64,000 bases of DNA from an uncultured Verrucomicrobiae bacterium (lineage in GTDB: Bacteria; Verrucomicrobiota; Verrucomicrobiia; Limisphaerales; Palsa-1400), in contig OY969763.1 of NCBI GenBank assembly GCA_963702845.1, positions 2,272,001 through 2,336,000 on the forward strand. The letters are read 5' to 3'. The translations under genes and the position numbers were made by a program. The notes below the pieces were generated by a model that saw nothing but the letters and a program-made list of their open reading frames with translations, was not told where the DNA came from and searched no databases. Shown piece after piece: positions 27,314 to 36,390 of this stretch. Numbering within the stretch: the first letter of the stretch is position 1; every line of letters starts with the position of its first letter.

Positions 27314-28201
27314 CTGAACACTACTCCTTCACCCATCTTCATTGCTGGCGCGACCGCCGTCGGCAAATCCGAAATCGCTCTGCAACTCGCCGAGCGCATT
27401 CATGGCGAAATCATTTCCGTCGATTCGATGCAGGTCTATCGCGGCCTCGACATTGGAACCGCCAAACCCTCGCGCGAAGAACAACAACGCATTCCCCATC
27501 ACTTGATCGATGTCGCGGAATTAAACGAATCCTTTGATGCCGCCCGATTCGTGACGTTGGCCAAAGCCGCCGTTGAAGAAATTCACTCACGCGGCAAAGT
27601 ACCCATTTTCTGCGGCGGCACCGGACTTTACTTCAAAGCTTACCTGGACGGCTTGGGTGAAGCGCCTCCATCAGATCCCCTGCTCCGCTCCCAACTCGAA
27701 TCAACGCCGCTCGAGCAACTCCTGCCAGAACTGCAACAACGCGATCCCGTAACCTACGACAAAATCGATCGCCAAAACCCGCGTCGAGTCGTGCGCGCCC
27801 TCGAAGTCATCCGTCTCACCGGCAAGCCATTTTCAGAACAACGCGCCGCGTGGAAATCCACGTCGCACCCCAACGCTTTCGGGATCACTCGCTGTTCCTC
27901 CGAACTCGTCGACCGCATCCATCAACGTGTCGACGCGATGTTTCGTCAGGGCCTCGTTAGCGAGACCGAAGCATTACTCAAAAGCGGCCTCGAACAAAAT
28001 CGCACCGCCATGCAAGCCATCGGCTACAAGCAAGTCGTTGAACACATCCGCGGCGAACGTTCCCTTCCCGAAACAATCGAACTCGTCAAAATCCGCACCC
28101 GCCAATTCGCCAAGCGACAATCGACCTGGTTCCGCCGCCAAATGCACCTTGATTGGTTGAATGCCGATGAACATTGCATCGCGCGAATCCTAAACAGGTA
28201 G
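27314..28201 (+). CDS. miaA: tRNA dimethylallyltransferase
   Basis: IAGATAVGKS P-loop upstream of the track start, DSMQVYRGLDIGTAKP, GGTGLY, FAKRQSTWFR; start uncertain (CTG 27314). Confidence 0.93.
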   Translation: MNTTPSPIFIAGATAVGKSEIALQLAERIHGEIISVDSMQVYRGLDIGTAKPSREEQQRIPHHLIDVAELNESFDAARFVTLAKAAVEEIHSRGKVPIFCGGTGLYFKAYLDGLGEAPPSDPLLRSQLESTPLEQLLPELQQRDPVTYDKIDRQNPRRVVRALEVIRLTGKPFSEQRAAWKSTSHPNAFGITRCSSELVDRIHQRVDAMFRQGLVSETEALLKSGLEQNRTAMQAIGYKQVVEHIRGERSLPETIELVKIRTRQFAKRQSTWFRRQMHLDWLNADEHCIARILNR

Positions 28202-28203
28202 GG

Positions 28204-28242
28204 CGCGAAGCGTCTTGGACTGCGCCAGCCCTCTGGCGCTTT
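28204..28242. repeat. 39-bp dispersed repeat
   Basis: cgcgaagcgtcttggactgcgccagccctctggcgcttt, identical at 32306-32344. Confidence 0.85.
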
Positions 28243-28420
28243 TGGATACACCCCCGGATTCGAAAGCACCCAGAACCCCAAATGCTATTGACTGGAGTAA
28301 TGGTGATGCCTACGGTTTTCGCATGCTAATGAAACAAGGAAACCTTTCCACCTTTAACGTTCACTTATGACATTAGGCGGAAAGAAGGATTACATCATAA
28401 TATAGTTGGGCTTGAAATCC

Positions 28421-28969
28421 ATGACCCCGGACGAGTTCAAAAATCAGTGGGAACGCGAGCAGATGTCGCAACTTGTGCGATATCCTCGCAGCGTTGTTCT
28501 GGAGCTTTCTATTCCAGAAGAAGCGAAGTCATTTCTAACGGATATTGGTCTTCCAATGAGCGCAGCTCCATTTCTTGATTTCGGCGGATCATCTCACATT
28601 TCCATTCCGACCGTGACCGAGGTTTGGAAAGCTGGTCAACGTCGATTCCGCATCATTGGTTCGAATGGCTATGGAGATCCAGTTTGTGTCGACACAGAAT
28701 CTGCTGGCCGCGTTTTTTACCTGCTTCATGAAGATGAGATGACTCCTCGCTTTATGAATTCATCGATTCCTCAATTAGCCTATTCGCTTCTCGCGTTTCG
28801 TCAGGTTGTCGCCGACACGAACGCGATTGGCGGGAAAGACGCTTACCTTGAAGGGCGCATTCCATCCAAGGTTGTCGACCGGTTCATAACTGAGATGGAG
28901 TCGATCGATCCACCCGCCATTTCGTCGGAGCATTTTTGGTTTCACTCCATCGTTGGAGAGGGAATCTGA
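28421..28969 (+). CDS. SUKH-4 family immunity protein
   Basis: SFLTDIGLP, IIGSNGYGDPVCVD..GRV, FMNSSIPQL, IDPPA...FW. Confidence 0.75.
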   Translation: MTPDEFKNQWEREQMSQLVRYPRSVVLELSIPEEAKSFLTDIGLPMSAAPFLDFGGSSHISIPTVTEVWKAGQRRFRIIGSNGYGDPVCVDTESAGRVFYLLHEDEMTPRFMNSSIPQLAYSLLAFRQVVADTNAIGGKDAYLEGRIPSKVVDRFITEMESIDPPAISSEHFWFHSIVGEGI

Positions 28970-28981
28970 CGGCATGCAAAA

Positions 28982-29074
28982 GCCCAACAAACCAGATGTA
29001 GCGAACCCGGCGATGGCGCTCTGGTTGACCATCGAAGATCAGTGGCGCCGGGTTGCTGATGCTCGTCGTCTCCC
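28982..29074 (+). repeat. attC-like site (right core degenerate)
   Basis: GCCCAAC (RYYYAAC); AGCGAACCCGGCG pairs with CGCCGGGTTGCT leaving one bulge. Confidence 0.7.
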
Positions 29075-29704
29075 ATGACATCACTTCCCCCCATTCCAGA
29101 CCTCCTACGCCTCACCAAGGCTTTAGCGGCGCTGGACCTGATTCTGTCGCCAGAGTGGGAGTATCGATATTATTCATTCAATGCCGTTTGGTCCCCTTCC
29201 GAGCAGATGGCGAGCATGCGGGATGGTTGTGGCGACGAATGGTGGCTCGTTTTCCACACCAATGGTTGGGCCGCTCTCAAGGGACTGGCTCACGAATCCG
29301 AAGCCTGGTCGAAAGGTGGGAATAAACTTTCCGCTGCACTTCAAGCAGCCATGCCGCCTGACGTGGCCGACTTTGCGAGAGAGCCTGCGTTCCGTTGGGA
29401 CTCCACCAGTTTTGCCTACTTCTATCTTTCCTCCAAACCGCAATGGTGCAGAGCGAACGATCTCACGACCTTCGCCACCTTGGACGCCGGGGAGAATGAA
29501 CTGCTTCGACACTTGTCCGGCACTCCATCGGACTACGCATCATTTGCCACTGACTACTACGAGAAATCGGTGCCCGTAGATGCCGTAGCGGAGATATTCC
29601 GGCACACCCCGATTACCGACCAGCTGGTGTCATCTCTCAACTCAGACGTCACCCTTAAAGACATTACCGATGAGCTTCATAATGAGATCGGATACCCGCA
29701 CTGA
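29075..29704 (+). CDS. Hypothetical protein (cassette gene)
   Basis: 209-aa ORF starting immediately after attC; LDLILSPEWEYRYYSF...MRDGCGD. Confidence 0.75.
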   Translation: MTSLPPIPDLLRLTKALAALDLILSPEWEYRYYSFNAVWSPSEQMASMRDGCGDEWWLVFHTNGWAALKGLAHESEAWSKGGNKLSAALQAAMPPDVADFAREPAFRWDSTSFAYFYLSSKPQWCRANDLTTFATLDAGENELLRHLSGTPSDYASFATDYYEKSVPVDAVAEIFRHTPITDQLVSSLNSDVTLKDITDELHNEIGYPH

Positions 29705-29711
29705 TTAAAAG

Positions 29712-29739
29712 GCTATCGGATACAAGCAAGTCGTTGAAC
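29712..29739 (+). repeat. 28-bp direct repeat of a miaA internal segment
   Basis: 26/28 identical to 28016-28043. Confidence 0.8.
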
Positions 29740-29888
29740 GTACTTTAAAAGTTCTCCTTCGCCCTCTTCGCAACCTTCGCCCCCCTTCGCGCGAAATCCC
29801 ACTTTCAACCAATTTATTTTTCGCCAAAACTCCTATTTCCCAGCCAACTCACTCAGTAGCAGCAACTAACACAAATTATGTAATATTT

Positions 29889-29915
29889 TCACTTGGACAG
29901 TCTTTGTCCAAGTGA
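29889..29915. promoter_or_regulatory. Perfect 11-bp inverted repeat, candidate operator
   Basis: TCACTTGGACA-gtctt-TGTCCAAGTGA, ending 37 nt upstream of ATG 29953. Confidence 0.55.
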
Positions 29916-29952
29916 CGGCGCTACACTCATCTGAAATAAATAAAGATGAGTT

Positions 29953-30618
29953 ATGAATAACGAACCTATTTCGACAATTGCGACCCGCGAGGCAGCGCCG
30001 GAAACTCCCATCCCATCCAAACCCCGTAAGCCTCGCGTTCTCCCTAGCAAGATATCCGAGCTCCCGTCGGACCTTCGTACACTTGTGAACGAATCCCTTT
30101 ACAACCATGTTCCATACCCAAAAATAATCGAACTCCTCGCCCAAAAAGGTCATCCCGGCTTCAACCGTTCCAACATCAGCCGCTGGAAAAAGATTGGCTA
30201 CGAGGAGTGGCTTTTGCACCAGCAGCGCATCCAATCCGTCTGCCTCAAGGTCGACGACGTTCACAAACACATCGACAAATTCGGCGCACAAGGTGTCGAC
30301 CAATGCGACCGCCTGAACAAAATCTATCTCGCCGCCCACATCACTCAAACGATTCAAGGCTTCGATCCCAACATGCTTGTCGGCGATATCAACAAAAAAC
30401 CCTCACGCTTCTACAAACTCGCTCGCATCATCAACACCCAATCCCTCGAGCGCCAGCGTCAGGAAAAAATCGACCTCATCCGCGAAAAATTCTCCGCCGC
30501 CCAACCCACTGGCCCCACCGCAGCCGGTGAACAAGCTGTCAGACTCGCCTTCGGCATCCCCGACTCCTGGTCGCCGTCTGGCACCCGAAACACCGTAACG
30601 CAAAATCACGGGTCATAA
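29953..30618 (+). CDS. HTH protein, DUF3486/Mu gp27-like putative small terminase
   Basis: SKISELPSDLRTLVNESL...YPKIIELL...NRSNISRW HTH pattern; immediately upstream of the large terminase. Confidence 0.6.
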   Translation: MNNEPISTIATREAAPETPIPSKPRKPRVLPSKISELPSDLRTLVNESLYNHVPYPKIIELLAQKGHPGFNRSNISRWKKIGYEEWLLHQQRIQSVCLKVDDVHKHIDKFGAQGVDQCDRLNKIYLAAHITQTIQGFDPNMLVGDINKKPSRFYKLARIINTQSLERQRQEKIDLIREKFSAAQPTGPTAAGEQAVRLAFGIPDSWSPSGTRNTVTQNHGS

Positions 30619-30700
30619 CGGCTCATAACGGCTCATAACGGCTCATAACGGCTCATAACGGCTCATAACGGCTCATAACGCTTTATAACGCTTTATAACG
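30611..30700 (+). repeat. Tandem array of nine 10-bp units
   Basis: GGTCATAACG, (GCTCATAACG)x6, (CTTTATAACG)x2. Confidence 0.95.
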
Positions 30701-30722
30701 CCAAAAAATAAAAAAATTATTT

Positions 30723-32207
30723 ATGAAAACCACAAATCAACTAAACACACTCACATCCTTCCTCGCCAAACAAGCAGTGCTGGCCGCCGCCAACTTCATC
30801 GGCAAAGCCAAAATCCGCCCCACCGGCTACTTCCTTCCCACACAAGCCAAGTGGGTCTTTGACAATTCCCCGCGCAAATTTTGCGTCAAAGGCCGCCAAC
30901 TCGGCTGGTCCAAATTCACCATGTTCCGCCACACCTTCAACCTCGGTTACGGCCCGCGCAACATCGACACCTGGGTGAGCAGCACCGACCAAACCCAGGC
31001 TGGCCTTCTCGTCGAAGACGTCGTTTGGTGCGCCGACCTCTTCCAATTCAGCGGCTTCGGCGATCGCCTCATCAAATCCATCTCCCAAGACTGCGTCCAC
31101 TTCACCAACGGCAACCGCATCCACTCCCTCTCCTCCAATCCCAACGCTCAAGCCGGCAAACGCGGCAACCGCGTCCTCGACGAATTCGCCCTCCACGAAC
31201 AACAGGAAAAACTCCTCGCCATCGCCATGCCCGGCACCGACTGGAGCGGCGACGTCGAAATCTTTTCCACCCCACGCGGCACCAACACCCAATTCCATCG
31301 CCTCATGATGGAGATCGAACACAACGCCAACCCGCGCGGCTTCAGCTACTACAAATACACCCTCCAAAACTTCCTCGACGAAGGCGGCCTCTACAAAATC
31401 CAATGCGCCCTCCCGCACAACCATCACGTCCAACAAATGGACGAAGCCCAATACTTCGACTACAAACGAATCGAATGCGGTGACCAGGAAGTTTTCAACC
31501 AGGAATACATGTGCGTCTCCACCGACGAAGCCACCGCCTTCCTTAGCTACGACCTCATCACCGCCGCCGAATATCCATTGAATTCCTCCTCGTCCACGAA
31601 TGAGGTGCCTTCCAATCCGCAATCCGAAATCCCCAATTCGCAATCATCCACCTGGTCCTGCGACCCCTCCACCCTCTCCAAAGACTCCGAACTCTTCATC
31701 GGCGTCGACATTGGCCGCGACAAAGACCTGACCGCAATCTGGGTCCTGGACAAACGCGGCAGCACCTATCACACCGTCGCAATCCAAATCTTCGACAAAG
31801 AACCCTTCGAAAAACAAGAAGCCGCCCTTTACGAACTCCTCGCCTTACCACAAGTCAAACGTTGCTGCATCGACCAAACCGGCATCGGCCGCCAATTCAC
31901 CGAACGCGCCCAACAAAAATTCGGTAAATACAAAGTCGAAGGCGTCACCTTTACTCAGGCCATGAAAGAAGAACTAGCGTACCCAGTGCGCATGGCCTTC
32001 GAAGACCGCACCATAAAAATCCCAAGCTCCCCCGAAATCCGCGCCGACCTTCGCGCCATAAAAAAAGAGCCGACGAGCAGCGGCAACGTCCGCTTCACCT
32101 CCGACCGCGGCGAAGCCGGCCACTCCGACCGCTTCTGGGCTCTGTCCTTGGCCGTGCGCGCCACCAAACAAAAACACCAACCCCTGGAAATCACCCTCGG
32201 CTACTAA
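30723..32207 (+). CDS. Phage terminase large subunit (Mu gp28-like)
   Basis: KGRQLGWS Walker A, VLDEFA Walker B, STPRG, IGVDIGR, IDQTGIG, GHSDRFWALSLA. Confidence 0.9.
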   Translation: MKTTNQLNTLTSFLAKQAVLAAANFIGKAKIRPTGYFLPTQAKWVFDNSPRKFCVKGRQLGWSKFTMFRHTFNLGYGPRNIDTWVSSTDQTQAGLLVEDVVWCADLFQFSGFGDRLIKSISQDCVHFTNGNRIHSLSSNPNAQAGKRGNRVLDEFALHEQQEKLLAIAMPGTDWSGDVEIFSTPRGTNTQFHRLMMEIEHNANPRGFSYYKYTLQNFLDEGGLYKIQCALPHNHHVQQMDEAQYFDYKRIECGDQEVFNQEYMCVSTDEATAFLSYDLITAAEYPLNSSSSTNEVPSNPQSEIPNSQSSTWSCDPSTLSKDSELFIGVDIGRDKDLTAIWVLDKRGSTYHTVAIQIFDKEPFEKQEAALYELLALPQVKRCCIDQTGIGRQFTERAQQKFGKYKVEGVTFTQAMKEELAYPVRMAFEDRTIKIPSSPEIRADLRAIKKEPTSSGNVRFTSDRGEAGHSDRFWALSLAVRATKQKHQPLEITLGY

Positions 32208-32480
32208 CCGTGCCGCAGACTTCCAAGTCTGCCGTATCGCAGGTTTCCAAACCTGCGTCGCGTTGAACCATATGAACCCATTAAAAACATCTCCGCATCA
32301 AACCACGCGAAGCGTCTTGGACTGCGCCAGCCCTCTGGCGCTTTCACCAACGCGTGTCGCTCTTCACCTTCCCCTCCGCATCCTTGGTGTCTTGGTGGTT
32401 CAAACTCTTTCCATTTTCCATATCCGTTCCGTGTTCGTCCGTGCCGCTTTCAAATTTCAAATCTGAAATTTCCAATTCAT
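32206..32480. repeat. Mosaic of several host repeat families
   Basis: Copies shared with 26226 and 28204; cttggtgtcttggtggttc; tttcaaatttcaaatctgaaatt. Confidence 0.75.
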
Positions 32481-32494
32481 AACTCCCAAGTCCC

Positions 32495-33865
32495 ATGAAT
32501 CCATTCCAAACAATCACCAAAACTTTGAAAAACTTCATCGGCCTCGAAACCAAATCGACCCCACCCCTCCAAGCCTGGGTCAATGGCGACGACCTCGACG
32601 CGCCAAAAACTAGACTCATCGATCCCTACGGCCAGAGCCCTTGGATCTACATCGCCATCTCCGTCCTTGGCGAAAACCTCGCCCACATTCCATTCCGCAT
32701 CTCCCGCAGCAAACGCGGCGCCGACGATGTCATCGAATCCGGCCCCATCATCGACCTATTCGAAAATCCACATCCCAGCCTCACGCGCACATTGTTCTGG
32801 CAAACCTTGGTAAGCTGGGAAGCCCTCCGCGGCGAATTCTTCATTTTGCCTTTGGATAAGAGTGATCGCCCGATGTCATTGAACGGCCCGCGCAGCGCGA
32901 CGGGCCCTACCTCTTTGCTGCCGTTGAATCCGGACCACTTCCAACACATCGTCCACGGCAACAATCTGAGCGGCTGGCGCTACAACTGCCACGCCCCACA
33001 ACAACCAATCCAATCCCAGGTCCTGCTGCCCGAAGAAGTCATCCACTCCCGCAACTTCAACCCATACCTATTCTGGCGCGGCCTCTCGCCATTAACCGTC
33101 GCGCTATTGCCTGCCACCGCCGACTACGCCGCCGCCCAATTCATGAAAGGCGTCATGCTCAACAACGGCGACGCCGGCCTCATTGTCACCACACCTGACA
33201 TGCTCACCCCTGAACAAAAAGACCAACTACAAGCCTCACTCCAAAACCGCAAACGCGCCGTCGGCACCGCCGATAGACCGGCCTTCCTCTGGGGCAACGC
33301 CAAAATCGACAAACCGATGATCTCATCCGTCGATCTACAATTCATGGAAAACCGCCGCCTCAACCGCCAGGAAATTGGCGCGATCTACAAAGTCCCGGAA
33401 TCCATGATGGGCTTCACCGACAACAAAAGCGCGCTCAGCGCCGGCAGCAGCGTCGAGCAAGATCGCCTCAACTTCATCGAGAGCACCATGACCGGCATCT
33501 GCCGCCGACTCGAAGCCGCCATCGATCCCATCATCAAATCCTTCGGTGCAGACCTCTATGGCTGGTTCGATCTGGAAAGTTTGCCCATCATGCAAACCGC
33601 CCGCCGCCAACGCATCCAAAGCGCGAGCAACGCCTTCGCCATGGGCGTCCCCTTCAACGCCGTCAACCGGGTCTACCAACTCGGCTTCCCCAATTTCCCC
33701 TGGGGCAACGACGCCTACTTGCCAACGAATGTGCAAAGGGTCGGCAACTGGGTGCAGCCTCGTAAATTTGTAGGAGACGAGGTGACGAGGCGGACGGACG
33801 GCATCACCTACGGCGAGCAAGCGACAACAAAGCTTTTGGAATTGCTGGAAAGGAACGCGAAATGA
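32495..33865 (+). CDS. Phage portal protein (HK97 family)
   Basis: PWIYIAISVL, EEVIHSRNFNP...RGLSPL, DLQFMENRRLNRQEIGAIYKVP. Confidence 0.88.
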   Translation: MNPFQTITKTLKNFIGLETKSTPPLQAWVNGDDLDAPKTRLIDPYGQSPWIYIAISVLGENLAHIPFRISRSKRGADDVIESGPIIDLFENPHPSLTRTLFWQTLVSWEALRGEFFILPLDKSDRPMSLNGPRSATGPTSLLPLNPDHFQHIVHGNNLSGWRYNCHAPQQPIQSQVLLPEEVIHSRNFNPYLFWRGLSPLTVALLPATADYAAAQFMKGVMLNNGDAGLIVTTPDMLTPEQKDQLQASLQNRKRAVGTADRPAFLWGNAKIDKPMISSVDLQFMENRRLNRQEIGAIYKVPESMMGFTDNKSALSAGSSVEQDRLNFIESTMTGICRRLEAAIDPIIKSFGADLYGWFDLESLPIMQTARRQRIQSASNAFAMGVPFNAVNRVYQLGFPNFPWGNDAYLPTNVQRVGNWVQPRKFVGDEVTRRTDGITYGEQATTKLLELLERNAK

Positions 33866-33930
33866 TTTCAGCCACCGATGAAACACGGATTTTTATGAAG
33901 ATGAATGGAAACGAACCGGCACAGAAGACG

Positions 33931-34908
33931 TCAATTCTGACGCGCGCGAGCACGCTTCCTTTGAATGTACGCGGGGTCATTAGTAACGAGGTCCGGCGCC
34001 ATCTTCTCAGCATAGTTTGTGACCAGAACCCTGACACGCTCTTTTGGGTCAATCAGCCCTTGGCGAACGAGATCTTTAGGAATCGGCTCATGCTCGCTCA
34101 GGAACCACAAACCGTAGTAGCCAGCGAAGCGATTAGAATCATTTGTCGACGCAACATAATTAGTCAAAACAGACATTACTTTTTCAGGAGCGACGCCCAG
34201 TCTTCCCGCGCTCCACGCTGCGAGATGCGCAAACTGATCATTCGTGCTCTGCGCAATGCTCAAAAGGACTGGCACTGCCGGCATAGCGTTCGTACCCAAA
34301 TAGTGCATTTGACCGATCGCTTTGATGGCTTCAATCCGGTGAAGGTTGTTAGGGCCGCCAGCCTGCACAAATGTGAGAAGAAAATCCAACGCCTGCGGAC
34401 CGAGATATTGCATAGCTTCAGCGTTCCTGCTTGCCTCCCCGTGATTAGTTGCCGCAATGAATGCGCGCTCAAGCTCAGGCAAAGCACTCACCGCATTCGT
34501 GCCAAGGATTTCGAAGCCCGAGGTGACAAGACCTTGATTCCGTTGGGGGCTCGCATGGTTGATCAGATATCTGATCCAGTCATATCGATAGTCGCGAGGC
34601 AGTTCAAAAAAACGCGTTCGTGTTGCCTTCAAAGTTTCGGAATCTTGTCCTCGATTCCACTTCAACAAGATAGGCACCGCATTACTGCCAATAGCGCGTA
34701 CTGCAGCAGCTGCTGCTATTGCCGTTCGGTTCGTGTACACGAAACCTCGATCGCCGATATCCAAGGAATGGTCGTGCAATATCAACCACTCACTCAACGT
34801 CCGCCCATTATAAGAAGGCTCCTTCTCGCGAAACCCGAAAAACCAAATCGCCAAAACTGCAATCAAACCACACAACGCGCAGAGCAAAATTTTCCACCGT
34901 CGCCTCAC
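33931..34908 (-). CDS. Membrane-anchored HEAT-repeat protein
   Basis: N-terminal TM, EPSYNGRTLSEW, repeated IGSNAVPIL / LGTNAMPAVPVL helical motifs. Confidence 0.8.
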   Translation of the reverse strand: MRRRWKILLCALCGLIAVLAIWFFGFREKEPSYNGRTLSEWLILHDHSLDIGDRGFVYTNRTAIAAAAAVRAIGSNAVPILLKWNRGQDSETLKATRTRFFELPRDYRYDWIRYLINHASPQRNQGLVTSGFEILGTNAVSALPELERAFIAATNHGEASRNAEAMQYLGPQALDFLLTFVQAGGPNNLHRIEAIKAIGQMHYLGTNAMPAVPVLLSIAQSTNDQFAHLAAWSAGRLGVAPEKVMSVLTNYVASTNDSNRFAGYYGLWFLSEHEPIPKDLVRQGLIDPKERVRVLVTNYAEKMAPDLVTNDPAYIQRKRARARQN

Positions 34909-34919
34909 ACCCCGAGCCT

Positions 34920-35010
34920 CTCAATTCAAAGTTCGATGATCAAGGTTCAATGTTCGGCGTTCGCTTTCACCTCCGCCCCCTTGGTGCCTTGGCCTCTTGG
35001 TGGTTCATTT
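34920..35010. repeat. Short-period intergenic repeats
   Basis: gttcgatgatcaaggttcaatgttcggcgttcg and cttggtgccttggcctcttggtggttc. Confidence 0.55.
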
Positions 35011-35088
35011 TGTTTCGATGACGCAAGTCACGCTCCCAACTCGAAAAGATTTGTTTTGAGGTCAGTTTTTCGGCATGTTCTGCGCTCC

Positions 35089-36390
35089 ATGCAACAAATC
35101 AATTTAGGCATGATTGGCGGCGGAACCGTGGGCAGTGGTGTGTATCACCACTTGCACAATAACGGTGCCCTGCTCGCCTCCCGCCTTGGCGTAAAAGTCG
35201 CCATGCGCAAGATTGCCGTCAAAGCTTTCGACGAACCTCGCCCTTACGAAATTCCCACGCCGTTGATGACTACCGACTGGCAGGAAGTCGTCAATGATCC
35301 GCAGATTCAAATCATCATCGAATTGATTGGCGGAACCGGTCTCGCGAAAACAATCATCCTGGCCGCACTGAAGCTGGGCAAACCCGTCATCACTGCAAAC
35401 AAAGCGTTGATTTCCGCGCACGGCGAAGAACTTTTTGCCGCAGCCGCAGCCTCCGGCACGAATTTATATTACGAAGCCAGCGTTTGCGGCGGCATTCCGA
35501 TCATCAAAGCGTTACGCGAAGGCTTTGTCGGCAATCGCATCACGCACATGTACGGAATCGTCAACGGCACGTGCAACTACATCCTCACGCGTATGAAGCT
35601 GGAAGGTTCGGATTTCGAACCGACCCTCAAAGACGCGCAAAAACTCGGTTACGCCGAAGCCAATCCTTCCCTGGACGTCGACGGCTTTGACGCAGAACAC
35701 AAGATCGGAATCCTCGCGTCACTCGCTCACGGTTTCTGGGTCAAGCCGGAGAAGATTTCCGTTGAAGGCATCGGTTCCGTTGGCAAAACGGACATCGAAT
35801 TTGCCGGTAAGCTTGGTTACACCATCAAACTGCTCGGCATCGTGAAGCTCATCGAAAAGCGCGGGATTCAGGTCTCGGTTTCTCCAACCCTGGTTCCAAA
35901 CACACACGTTCTCGCGAATGTGAATCAGGTATTCAACGCCGTGTTCGTCCGCGGCGATGTTGTTGGCGATACGCTTTTCTACGGACGCGGCGCAGGCAAA
36001 GACGCAACCGCAAGCGCCGTCCTCAGCGATATCGGTGATGCCGCCCTCGATCTTAAGCTCGGCACCAAACAACGCATCCCTCCATTTGTGCAAACCGATG
36101 GCCAGGGCGTAGTTTTGCCAGTCGACGAAGTCAGCTCGCGATACTATCTGCGTCTGAGCGTAGTCGACAAACCCGGCACACTCGCCCAAATCACGAGCCT
36201 TCTCGCCGACTCAAACATCGGCATTTCCTCCGTGATCCAGCCCGAAGGCCACGAAGCCGCCAGCGTCCCGCTGATTTTGATGACGCATGAAGCCCCCTAC
36301 GGCGCGATGAAGAAAGCCCTCGACGCCATCGCCAAGCTGCCGGTGATCAAATCCAAACCAGTCATGATGCGCGTGGAGACATTCGCCTGA
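35089..36390 (+). CDS. hom: Homoserine dehydrogenase
   Basis: GGGTVG, ITANKALI, YEASVCGGIPII, GIVNGTCNYIL, GRGAG, C-terminal ACT; start at ATG 35089. Confidence 0.95.
   Translation: MQQINLGMIGGGTVGSGVYHHLHNNGALLASRLGVKVAMRKIAVKAFDEPRPYEIPTPLMTTDWQEVVNDPQIQIIIELIGGTGLAKTIILAALKLGKPVITANKALISAHGEELFAAAAASGTNLYYEASVCGGIPIIKALREGFVGNRITHMYGIVNGTCNYILTRMKLEGSDFEPTLKDAQKLGYAEANPSLDVDGFDAEHKIGILASLAHGFWVKPEKISVEGIGSVGKTDIEFAGKLGYTIKLLGIVKLIEKRGIQVSVSPTLVPNTHVLANVNQVFNAVFVRGDVVGDTLFYGRGAGKDATASAVLSDIGDAALDLKLGTKQRIPPFVQTDGQGVVLPVDEVSSRYYLRLSVVDKPGTLAQITSLLADSNIGISSVIQPEGHEAASVPLILMTHEAPYGAMKKALDAIAKLPVIKSKPVMMRVETFA

Follow-up and report, generated by a model that had tools for sequence, protein, structure and literature searches.

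How does a bacterial chromosome come to carry a phage DNA-packaging motor with no head genes beside it? A stretch of 64,000 nucleotides from an uncultured Verrucomicrobiae bacterium (contig OY969763.1, positions 2,272,001 to 2,336,000; the window) raises this question. It contains three stop-free open reading frames (ORFs) in the same orientation, as an earlier note on these letters had described, and comparison of their products confirmed a probable Mu gp27-like small terminase (TerS), a Mu gp28-like terminase large subunit (TerL) and an HK97-type portal, together called the triad. The source genome (GCA_963702845.1; G000) is one contig of 6.03 Mb, scored 89.8 % complete. We propose, with a probability of roughly 0.5, that the triad is an inducible extra packaging motor of a domesticated, dispersed and tail-less head system that resembles gene transfer agents (GTAs) and descends from a Mu-like transposable phage. 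The earlier note had also favoured domestication; the idea gained from unlinked head genes, recurrence and selection; an unusual pairing of TerL with portal and a fixed site were not supported.

TerL was matched by Terminase_6N (1e-5), Terminase_6C (1e-22) and phrog_5909 (3e-35). The residues that we take to be Walker A (K56/R58/Q59/G61), Walker B (D153/E154), the coupling motif (T183/R185/G186) and the three nuclease positions (D329, D384, D469) were invariant in 15/15 aligned homologs. The earlier note had read these motifs correctly and had missed one departure, the YQ motif ahead of Walker A, which is TQ in the window TerL. The window portal (portal A) matched PF04860 at 1e-46 and reached 94 bits with TIGR01537 (HK97 portal), under that model's cut-off of 112. 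The TerS-like protein of 221 amino acids (aa) had no match among Pfam, PHROG or NCBIfam models. Its relatives (30 aligned, the window copy included) matched PF11985 (Mu gp27) in 9 cases and phrog_426 (small terminase) in 23, and one of its Atlas clusters at 0.95, which were mostly from Verrucomicrobiota where known, had 19 % PF11985. The predicted model was helical (pLDDT 82); in Foldseek, its best named viral match was a DUF3486 protein (E 7.7e-3), and no match at E<=0.001 was obtained against the PDB. By way of paralogs, it was 35 % alignable to phage TerS.

No capsid gene had been seen by the earlier note, which holds for the window and not for the genome. G000 has a single PF05065 capsid gene, 2.9 Mb from the triad, in a cluster with one protease, one adaptor, a second HK97-type portal (portal B) and a TerL. 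The cluster ends at gcvH, bears on its opposite strand small genes of membrane type and one short TerS-like gene, and follows an HTH and AAA_25 gene pair located 13-17 kb upstream of the protease. The suggested check for unlinked capsid and protease genes therefore turned up both, plus the adaptor, in the same genome; the head-set families present are PF05065, PF04586, PF05135, PF04860 and Terminase_6N/6C. The terminase pair has been multiplied to many sites, five of which lie behind a promoter box common to WYL genes. In total, we counted 14 TerS-like loci, nine TerL loci (six full length, two split, one stub) and two HK97-type portals.

The gene order of the head cluster was common to the congeners G001 and G002 and to the metagenome contig L495, in which the cluster TerL is intact. 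Between G000 and the two congeners, the capsids were 89-90 % identical. Pairwise ratios of nonsynonymous to synonymous substitution (dN/dS; Nei-Gojobori method, with a third-position bias that probably compresses dS) were 0.11 and 0.13 for the capsid, 0.17-0.20 for the adaptor, 0.19 for portal B and 0.12 for the cluster TerL; host control genes gave 0.05-0.18 at similar dS. At the level of sequence, these comparisons show that the head cluster was inherited in place, under host-level purifying selection. One short-branched clade (FastTree, support 1.0) united the capsids of G000, G001, G002, G003 and G007, which are five genomes from three genera. The capsid family was found in 21/251 genomes of the order; the loci of families f11 and f14 were head-only and formed two further clades (19 loci opened, plus G034). 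Separately, we observed a hydrophobic, membrane-like N-terminal start in the capsids of the phages L185, L113, L368, L384 and L385 and of G007 and G003, which is absent in G000, G001 and G002.

For the triad genes, dN/dS was also well under 1: 0.175 (bootstrap 0.12-0.23) for portal A against G001, 0.41 (0.31-0.55) and 0.32 (0.25-0.39) for the closest TerL pairs, and 0.30 (0.20-0.43) for TerS. The triad recurs in relatives (G001, L469 and other loci), and its closest homologs are other stand-alone copies, not prophages; in all these comparisons, the expectations of the earlier note were borne out. In a tree of 61 TerL sequences (four duplicate rows excluded), the window copy was joined by four further copies from G000 and G002, likewise stand-alone, in one clade with support 1.0, a long stem and no phage member. 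Portal A, portal B and the G007 portal likewise grouped in one clade (FastTree, support 1.0), and by its sequence portal A is a duplicate of portal B that arose within the lineage. Its identity to the portals of G001 and of L469 was 78 %. L469, the best of 30 metagenome loci for portal A, is a sister triad with the order TerS 3' end, 10-bp array, TerL (74 %), HEAT cassette, portal and host gene, the last having its G000 ortholog ~190 kb from the window. A sole derivation of portal A from the 2596-kb locus, which we had considered, was weakened by L469, where portal A follows a window-type TerL. On one contig of G001, portal A accompanies a TerL end, and triads amid host genes were also found in L133 and G161. 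Lone portals of 406-411 aa occur amid host genes in L464, L466, L487 and L488; those of G164 and G037 (family f14) share a common host site, away from the protease-capsid-adaptor cluster of these genomes.

A fixed site for the triad, whose long residence the earlier note had supposed, was not supported. In G001, miaA directly adjoins hom with a gap of 72 bp, versus a 6.8-kb block with the triad in G000; the block is thus an insertion in G000 or a loss in G001.

The pairing of a Mu gp28-like TerL with an HK97-type portal is present, as described earlier, and is not new. With portal types labelled by our own seed sequences, the portal downstream of TerL was Mu-type at 51 and HK97-type at 12 of the best 80 viral TerL loci (14 unlabelled, 3 too short), and Mu-type at 43 and HK97-type at 11 of 80 genome loci (19 unlabelled, 7 too short). 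The pairing is inherited from Mu-like phages of the group, which carry it, and its novelty is rejected. Viral loci were found by an alignment-based scan; TerL and portal, each used as a single-protein query against viral contigs, gave no match. The transposase-bearing phage L185 shares with G000, at 32-49 % identity, TerS, TerL, a portal (767 aa in L185), protease, capsid and adaptor, and a prophage of G012 has Mu Gam and a portal-MuF fusion. Portals of the related phages measure 750-800 aa, with a MuF domain in the one tested.

Matches of G000 to proteins of these phages were limited to TerS, TerL, portal, protease, capsid, adaptor and the gene in the gp25 position; their transposase, Gam, neck and tail-region proteins had no homolog in G000. 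An intact Mu-like prophage, in which one element unites transposase, tail and late genes, was not found. The tail search of G000 detected no PF10145, PF05521, profile A3 or full-length profile A4, a search that novel tail families could escape, in a genome scored 89.8 % complete. Only full-length A4 matches were considered meaningful because this profile mostly matched an Fn3-like domain across the order. A presumed tail-tube profile, named by gene position for a protein without Pfam or PHROG match, was present in 21/31 family genomes and in none of G000, G002, G003 and G007; G001 had one match, on a Mu-type head-tail fragment.

How might the triad be switched on? It is preceded by a palindromic sequence, the P1 box, and a -10-like hexamer (Table 1). 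The box matched once in the window, compared with zero matches in 100 shuffles, and at 29 sites in G000 (<=3 mismatches), compared with 1, 0 and 0 in three shuffles. At 24/29 sites, TAnnnT follows exactly 7 nt past the box. All four WYL genes have the box upstream, three of them with the fixed -10 spacing. The other targets are five TerS-like genes, a DUF3631 gene, a 68-aa gene and, for the remainder, short ORFs that fit no known family. Stand-alone terminases of a second family also have the box ahead of them (two directly, one with the box one ORF upstream); pairs of this family stand behind it at 2816 kb and 6005 kb. The box was present in 13/24 family genomes and in 0/16 genomes of other families. 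Among 40 sites from 12 relatives, the most conserved target was the 68-aa protein (nine genomes), which marks the box as that of an old host regulon. This protein (G000:C1:561203-561409; also L264, L266-L269, L271, L272, L275 and L301) has no PHROG match, and its start, Q-x-x-L-x-F/L, presumably resembles a sliding-clamp-binding motif. The WYL protein of G000 that we tested matched PafBC and other HTH-WYL-WCX structures (4e-14 to 1e-9). By analogy with the DriD regulon compared below, we infer that the triad promoter may be controlled by DNA damage through WYL binding at the P1 box. The box had also been considered as an RNA hairpin (z -4.35), but a fold is expected from any palindrome, and we read it instead as a DNA operator.

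The strict box pattern was found in 0 viral contigs and a looser one in 43, mostly as an unrelated recurrent sequence, with TerS or TerL homologs within 4 kb in 2/43. Viral versions lie at L185:4756 and in L311, L327 and L346; three precede a small ORF, and the box of the Mu-like phage L185 points toward the early region. Such boxes possibly serve damage-triggered phage induction via a host WYL protein.

At the TerS stop lies a phased 10-bp tandem array. Such an array was found at the 3' end of 4/5 box-led TerS genes, compared with 0/9 other TerS-like loci and 10/3500 background genes. Arrays of period 10 were over-represented in G000 (46, versus 0-3 for periods 8, 9, 11, 12 and 13; period 7 gave 26). 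TerS rings wrap DNA at helical-turn spacing, which makes the array a candidate packaging (pac) or binding site. Since no terminase adjoins most of these 46, the arrays may be members of a broader family of repeats.

We hypothesized the following sequence of events. Single-stranded DNA arising from DNA damage or phage attack would activate a DriD-like WYL dimer, which would turn on TerS, TerL and portal. TerS would then bind the phased array beside its own gene, and TerL would cut there and pump chromosomal DNA via the portal into heads made by the distant capsid cluster. The many terminase and array sites would provide many packaging start points around the chromosome. Delivery could rely on the tails of other phages, as in phage-inducible chromosomal islands that form capsids (cf-PICIs), or on tail-free uptake.

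Several findings weigh against this proposal. Without tails, the delivery step lacks an explanation. The capsid cluster is not under the P1 box: its promoters belong to a second family, in which phased TTTCCC repeats are followed by sigma-70-like -35/-10 elements (~33 loci in G000; for example, L052:5530-5619). This family precedes the protease, the adaptor, the membrane-gene unit and four other TerS-like genes, with two positions kept in G002. In the G000 head cluster, TerL is interrupted by an in-frame stop and its C-terminus is altered, 3/9 TerL loci are broken or stubs, the G003 capsid carries a stop, and G002 retains a 3' fragment only of portal A. The modules occupy non-orthologous sites across genomes, and G164 and G037 keep head genes and portal with only distant TerLs. 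Finally, the YQ tyrosine is replaced in 5/5 TerLs of the box-led clade versus kept in 9/9 others, and within this clade the ATPase half shows the higher dN/dS, 0.32-0.64 against 0.15-0.32 for the nuclease half. The YQ change and the weaker constraint on the ATPase half fit a cutting role better than pumping.

These last observations bear on the chief rival, interference with phages or satellites, which we consider unlikely though worth serious attention. The WYL-induced terminases and portal would then be decoys that enter or redirect the packaging of Mu-like phages or islands; variants are heads filled with host DNA, or cutting of replicating phage DNA or of the cell's own. Besides the altered YQ and the more constrained nuclease half, this would agree with the box ahead of terminases of a second, unrelated family, and with the picture of an arms race given by numerous diverged paralogs and by stand-alone TerL clades that recur independently. 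WYL activators can run defence genes alongside the damage response, in the part of the work that we consulted (PMC12392091). The intact motor motifs of TerL speak against interference, however, and it leaves the single-copy capsid, protease and adaptor at 89-90 % identity unaccounted for, unless these interfere too.

Quite unlikely, in our view, are selfish minimal cassettes, that is, units of box, TerS, array and TerL, with or without portal, that spread via packaging at their own array in the heads of others, selection acting on the element and not on the host. Birth and decay at sites that differ per genome (stubs at 274 kb and 2131 kb) would fit, as would the ~30 copies of both promoter families, often ahead of short ORFs without known family. 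Against this stand the block, which has no integrase, primase or terminal repeat, the head cluster inherited in place, and the box, an old regulon of the host whose conserved target, a 68-aa host protein, recurs in nine other genomes. That the genes are debris of repeated Mu-like insertions, their low dN/dS carried over from phage life, is very unlikely and largely refuted already for portal and capsid: complete Mu-like phages do share the gene set and order, the family commonly has truncated remnants that break off behind TerL or portal, and several copies are broken, but the selection estimates come from syntenic orthologs and from inside a clade without phage members, dS is host-like, and repeat insertions are in frame and common to several genomes.

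A wider form of the proposed packaging system, which we offer as doubtful, is a damage-inducible, tail-less gene transfer that would reach the whole chromosome. It would comprise scattered TerS-array-TerL start cassettes under a WYL sensor, one conserved head, borrowed tails and retained packaging specificity, with head-only sets domesticated at least three times in the order. If an inducible motor for host heads is indeed what the triad provides, these bacteria produce DNA-filled heads under host control, and their terminases are governed directly by a WYL damage sensor, linking damage response, phage defence and gene transfer; packaged reads would be expected to start at phased arrays. If defence is the right reading instead, decoys made of a terminase and portal that the host keeps would still be unusual as a mechanism.

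Table 1. Features of the triad locus (window positions) and the basis of each assignment
Feature	Position	Strand	Basis
Block between miaA and hom, absent from G001, with SUKH-4 gene, 209-aa orphan, triad and HEAT gene	28202..35038		Comparison with G001
P1 box, palindromic operator CACTTGGACA-N5-TGTCCAAGTG; putative WYL-activator site	29890..29914	+	Motif counts
-10-like hexamer TACACT, 7 nt past the box, no -35 consensus	29922..29927	+	Promoter function inferred
221-aa TerS-like protein, probable Mu gp27/DUF3486 family, with a helical bundle at the N-terminus and long helices	29953..30618	+	Profile matches of relatives
Phased 10-bp tandem array at TerS stop, 7.3 + 2.7 copies; candidate TerS-binding/pac site	30608..30701	+	Repeat test
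TerL, Mu gp28-like, 494 aa; in-frame repeat-derived linker insert at ~31581-31652	30723..32207	+	Profiles, alignment, repeat count
Two host interspersed repeats between TerL and portal	32208..32345		Copies genome-wide
Portal A, HK97-type, 456 aa, without the MuF extension of phage portals	32495..33865	+	Profiles

The triad is flanked upstream by miaA, a SUKH-4 gene and a 209-aa orphan, and downstream by a HEAT gene on the minus strand and hom-thrC-lysC (hom assigned by Pfam, thrC and lysC from reading the sequence). The earlier note had named the downstream neighbours correctly; its 'cassette array' was a generous term for two genes around one 90-bp element. This element occurs at three loci, and its identity as attC was not supported, only partial folding being seen. 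A 25-bp piece of the miaA 3' region (28019-28043) is repeated (24/25) at 29715-29739, just before the triad promoter; the pair brackets the SUKH-4 and 209-aa genes and may be a separate insertion mark. The listed 842-aa ORF at 33862-36390 is a mechanical extension: the true hom start is at 35089 (433 aa), and the minus-strand HEAT gene overlaps the extension. An Rfam scan of 27-36 kb gave zero matches, and the 6.8-kb block contained no integrase, primase or terminal repeat. Host repeats between and inside the triad genes, with unbroken frames, had been reported earlier, and we located them in frame. Genome-wide, the repeat at 32208-32262 has 33 loci, that at 32305-32345 has 16 (with a further copy at 28203-28245), the one inside TerL has 6 and the one at the portal 3' end has 17.

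Other phage-derived loci were seen in passing. Five related islands of G000 (G000:C1, 131-150, 1712-1740, 2235-2252, 4278-4300 and 4825-4840 kb) carry the second terminase family, a DUF4055 portal, a scaffold and a Gp13-like capsid, with integrase and primase-type genes in those annotated; no recognised tail gene was found in the five. Also conserved, and separate, is a Mu-type cluster of portal, protease, capsid and tail genes that lacks terminase and is mostly host-flanked; it occurs in L449-L455, L459-L461 and L463 (genera g3, g4, g5 and g8), and L035, L036, L038 and L041 were grouped with it. At another locus, G004, G012, G017 and G024 have a lipase-gp25-gp26-TerS-TerL unit. Genus g10 has the whole Mu-type cluster contiguous, mostly 75-93 % identical between congeners. 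The terminase-less cluster and the remote TerS-TerL unit are a candidate for a tailed, split GTA in the same family.

Which known system does the triad come closest to? In our literature searches, neither GTA-like systems nor lone terminases of Verrucomicrobiota were the subject of any paper, although supplements of genome surveys could list such genes. With Verrucomicrobiota Mu-like phages that have HK97-type heads (L185, L368, the G012 prophage), G000 has the TerS, TerL, portal, protease, capsid and adaptor families in common, and L185 bears, as G000 does, a version of the P1 box, in its phage control region. Unlike in these phages, transposase, Gam, gp26-like, neck and tail genes were not found in G000, and its portal lacks MuF.

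In the sections of PMC9662315 on which we drew, GTAs are defined by Caudoviricete-derived particle proteins, often endogenized at several loci, no self-replication module, mostly vertical inheritance and a tailed particle that packages and delivers mostly random host DNA. As in RcGTA, BaGTA and BhGTA, the G000 head and packaging genes are Caudoviricete-derived and endogenized at several loci, with no replication or integration module and apparent host control. Vertical inheritance is probable for the head cluster, which is syntenic with host-like dS in three congeners; the window triad changes site. Unlike the GTAs in these sections, G000 has no tail that we could find, and its terminase is multiplied, not single; the phased array at box-led TerS genes (4/5), the WYL-type box and the Mu-like ancestry also set it apart.

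As far as the consulted part of PMC10085698 describes them, cf-PICIs have their own capsid, protease, portal, TerS, TerL and adaptor and no tail genes; tail-less cf-PICI heads accept foreign tails, according to the portion of bioRxiv 2025.02.11.637232 that we used. G000 resembles them, at the genome level only, in having its own tail-less head and packaging gene set. By the same part of PMC10085698, it differs in that no integrase, regulator, primase or HNH gene accompanies the triad, which is thus not a cf-PICI, and in that its genes are scattered over megabases rather than held in one 14-kb island, the head cluster being inherited in place. No integrase, regulator or primase was found beside the capsid cluster either.

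For control of the triad, the closest likeness is to the DriD regulon of Caulobacter, whose site, in the part of PMC13004042 that we consulted, is ATACGAC-N7-GTCGTAT, which covers the -35 position and keeps a constant spacing to -10. Unlike in that account, the G000 box is flanked by CACTTG rather than DriD ATAC, four WYL paralogs are present, and the recognised targets are terminases, the DUF3631 protein and the small conserved protein instead of recognised repair genes. Like the DriD site described there (PMC13004042), the P1 box has a GAC-N7-GTC core, a -35 placement and a fixed -10 distance, the proteins are of the wHTH-WYL-WCX type, and the box stands ahead of the regulator genes.

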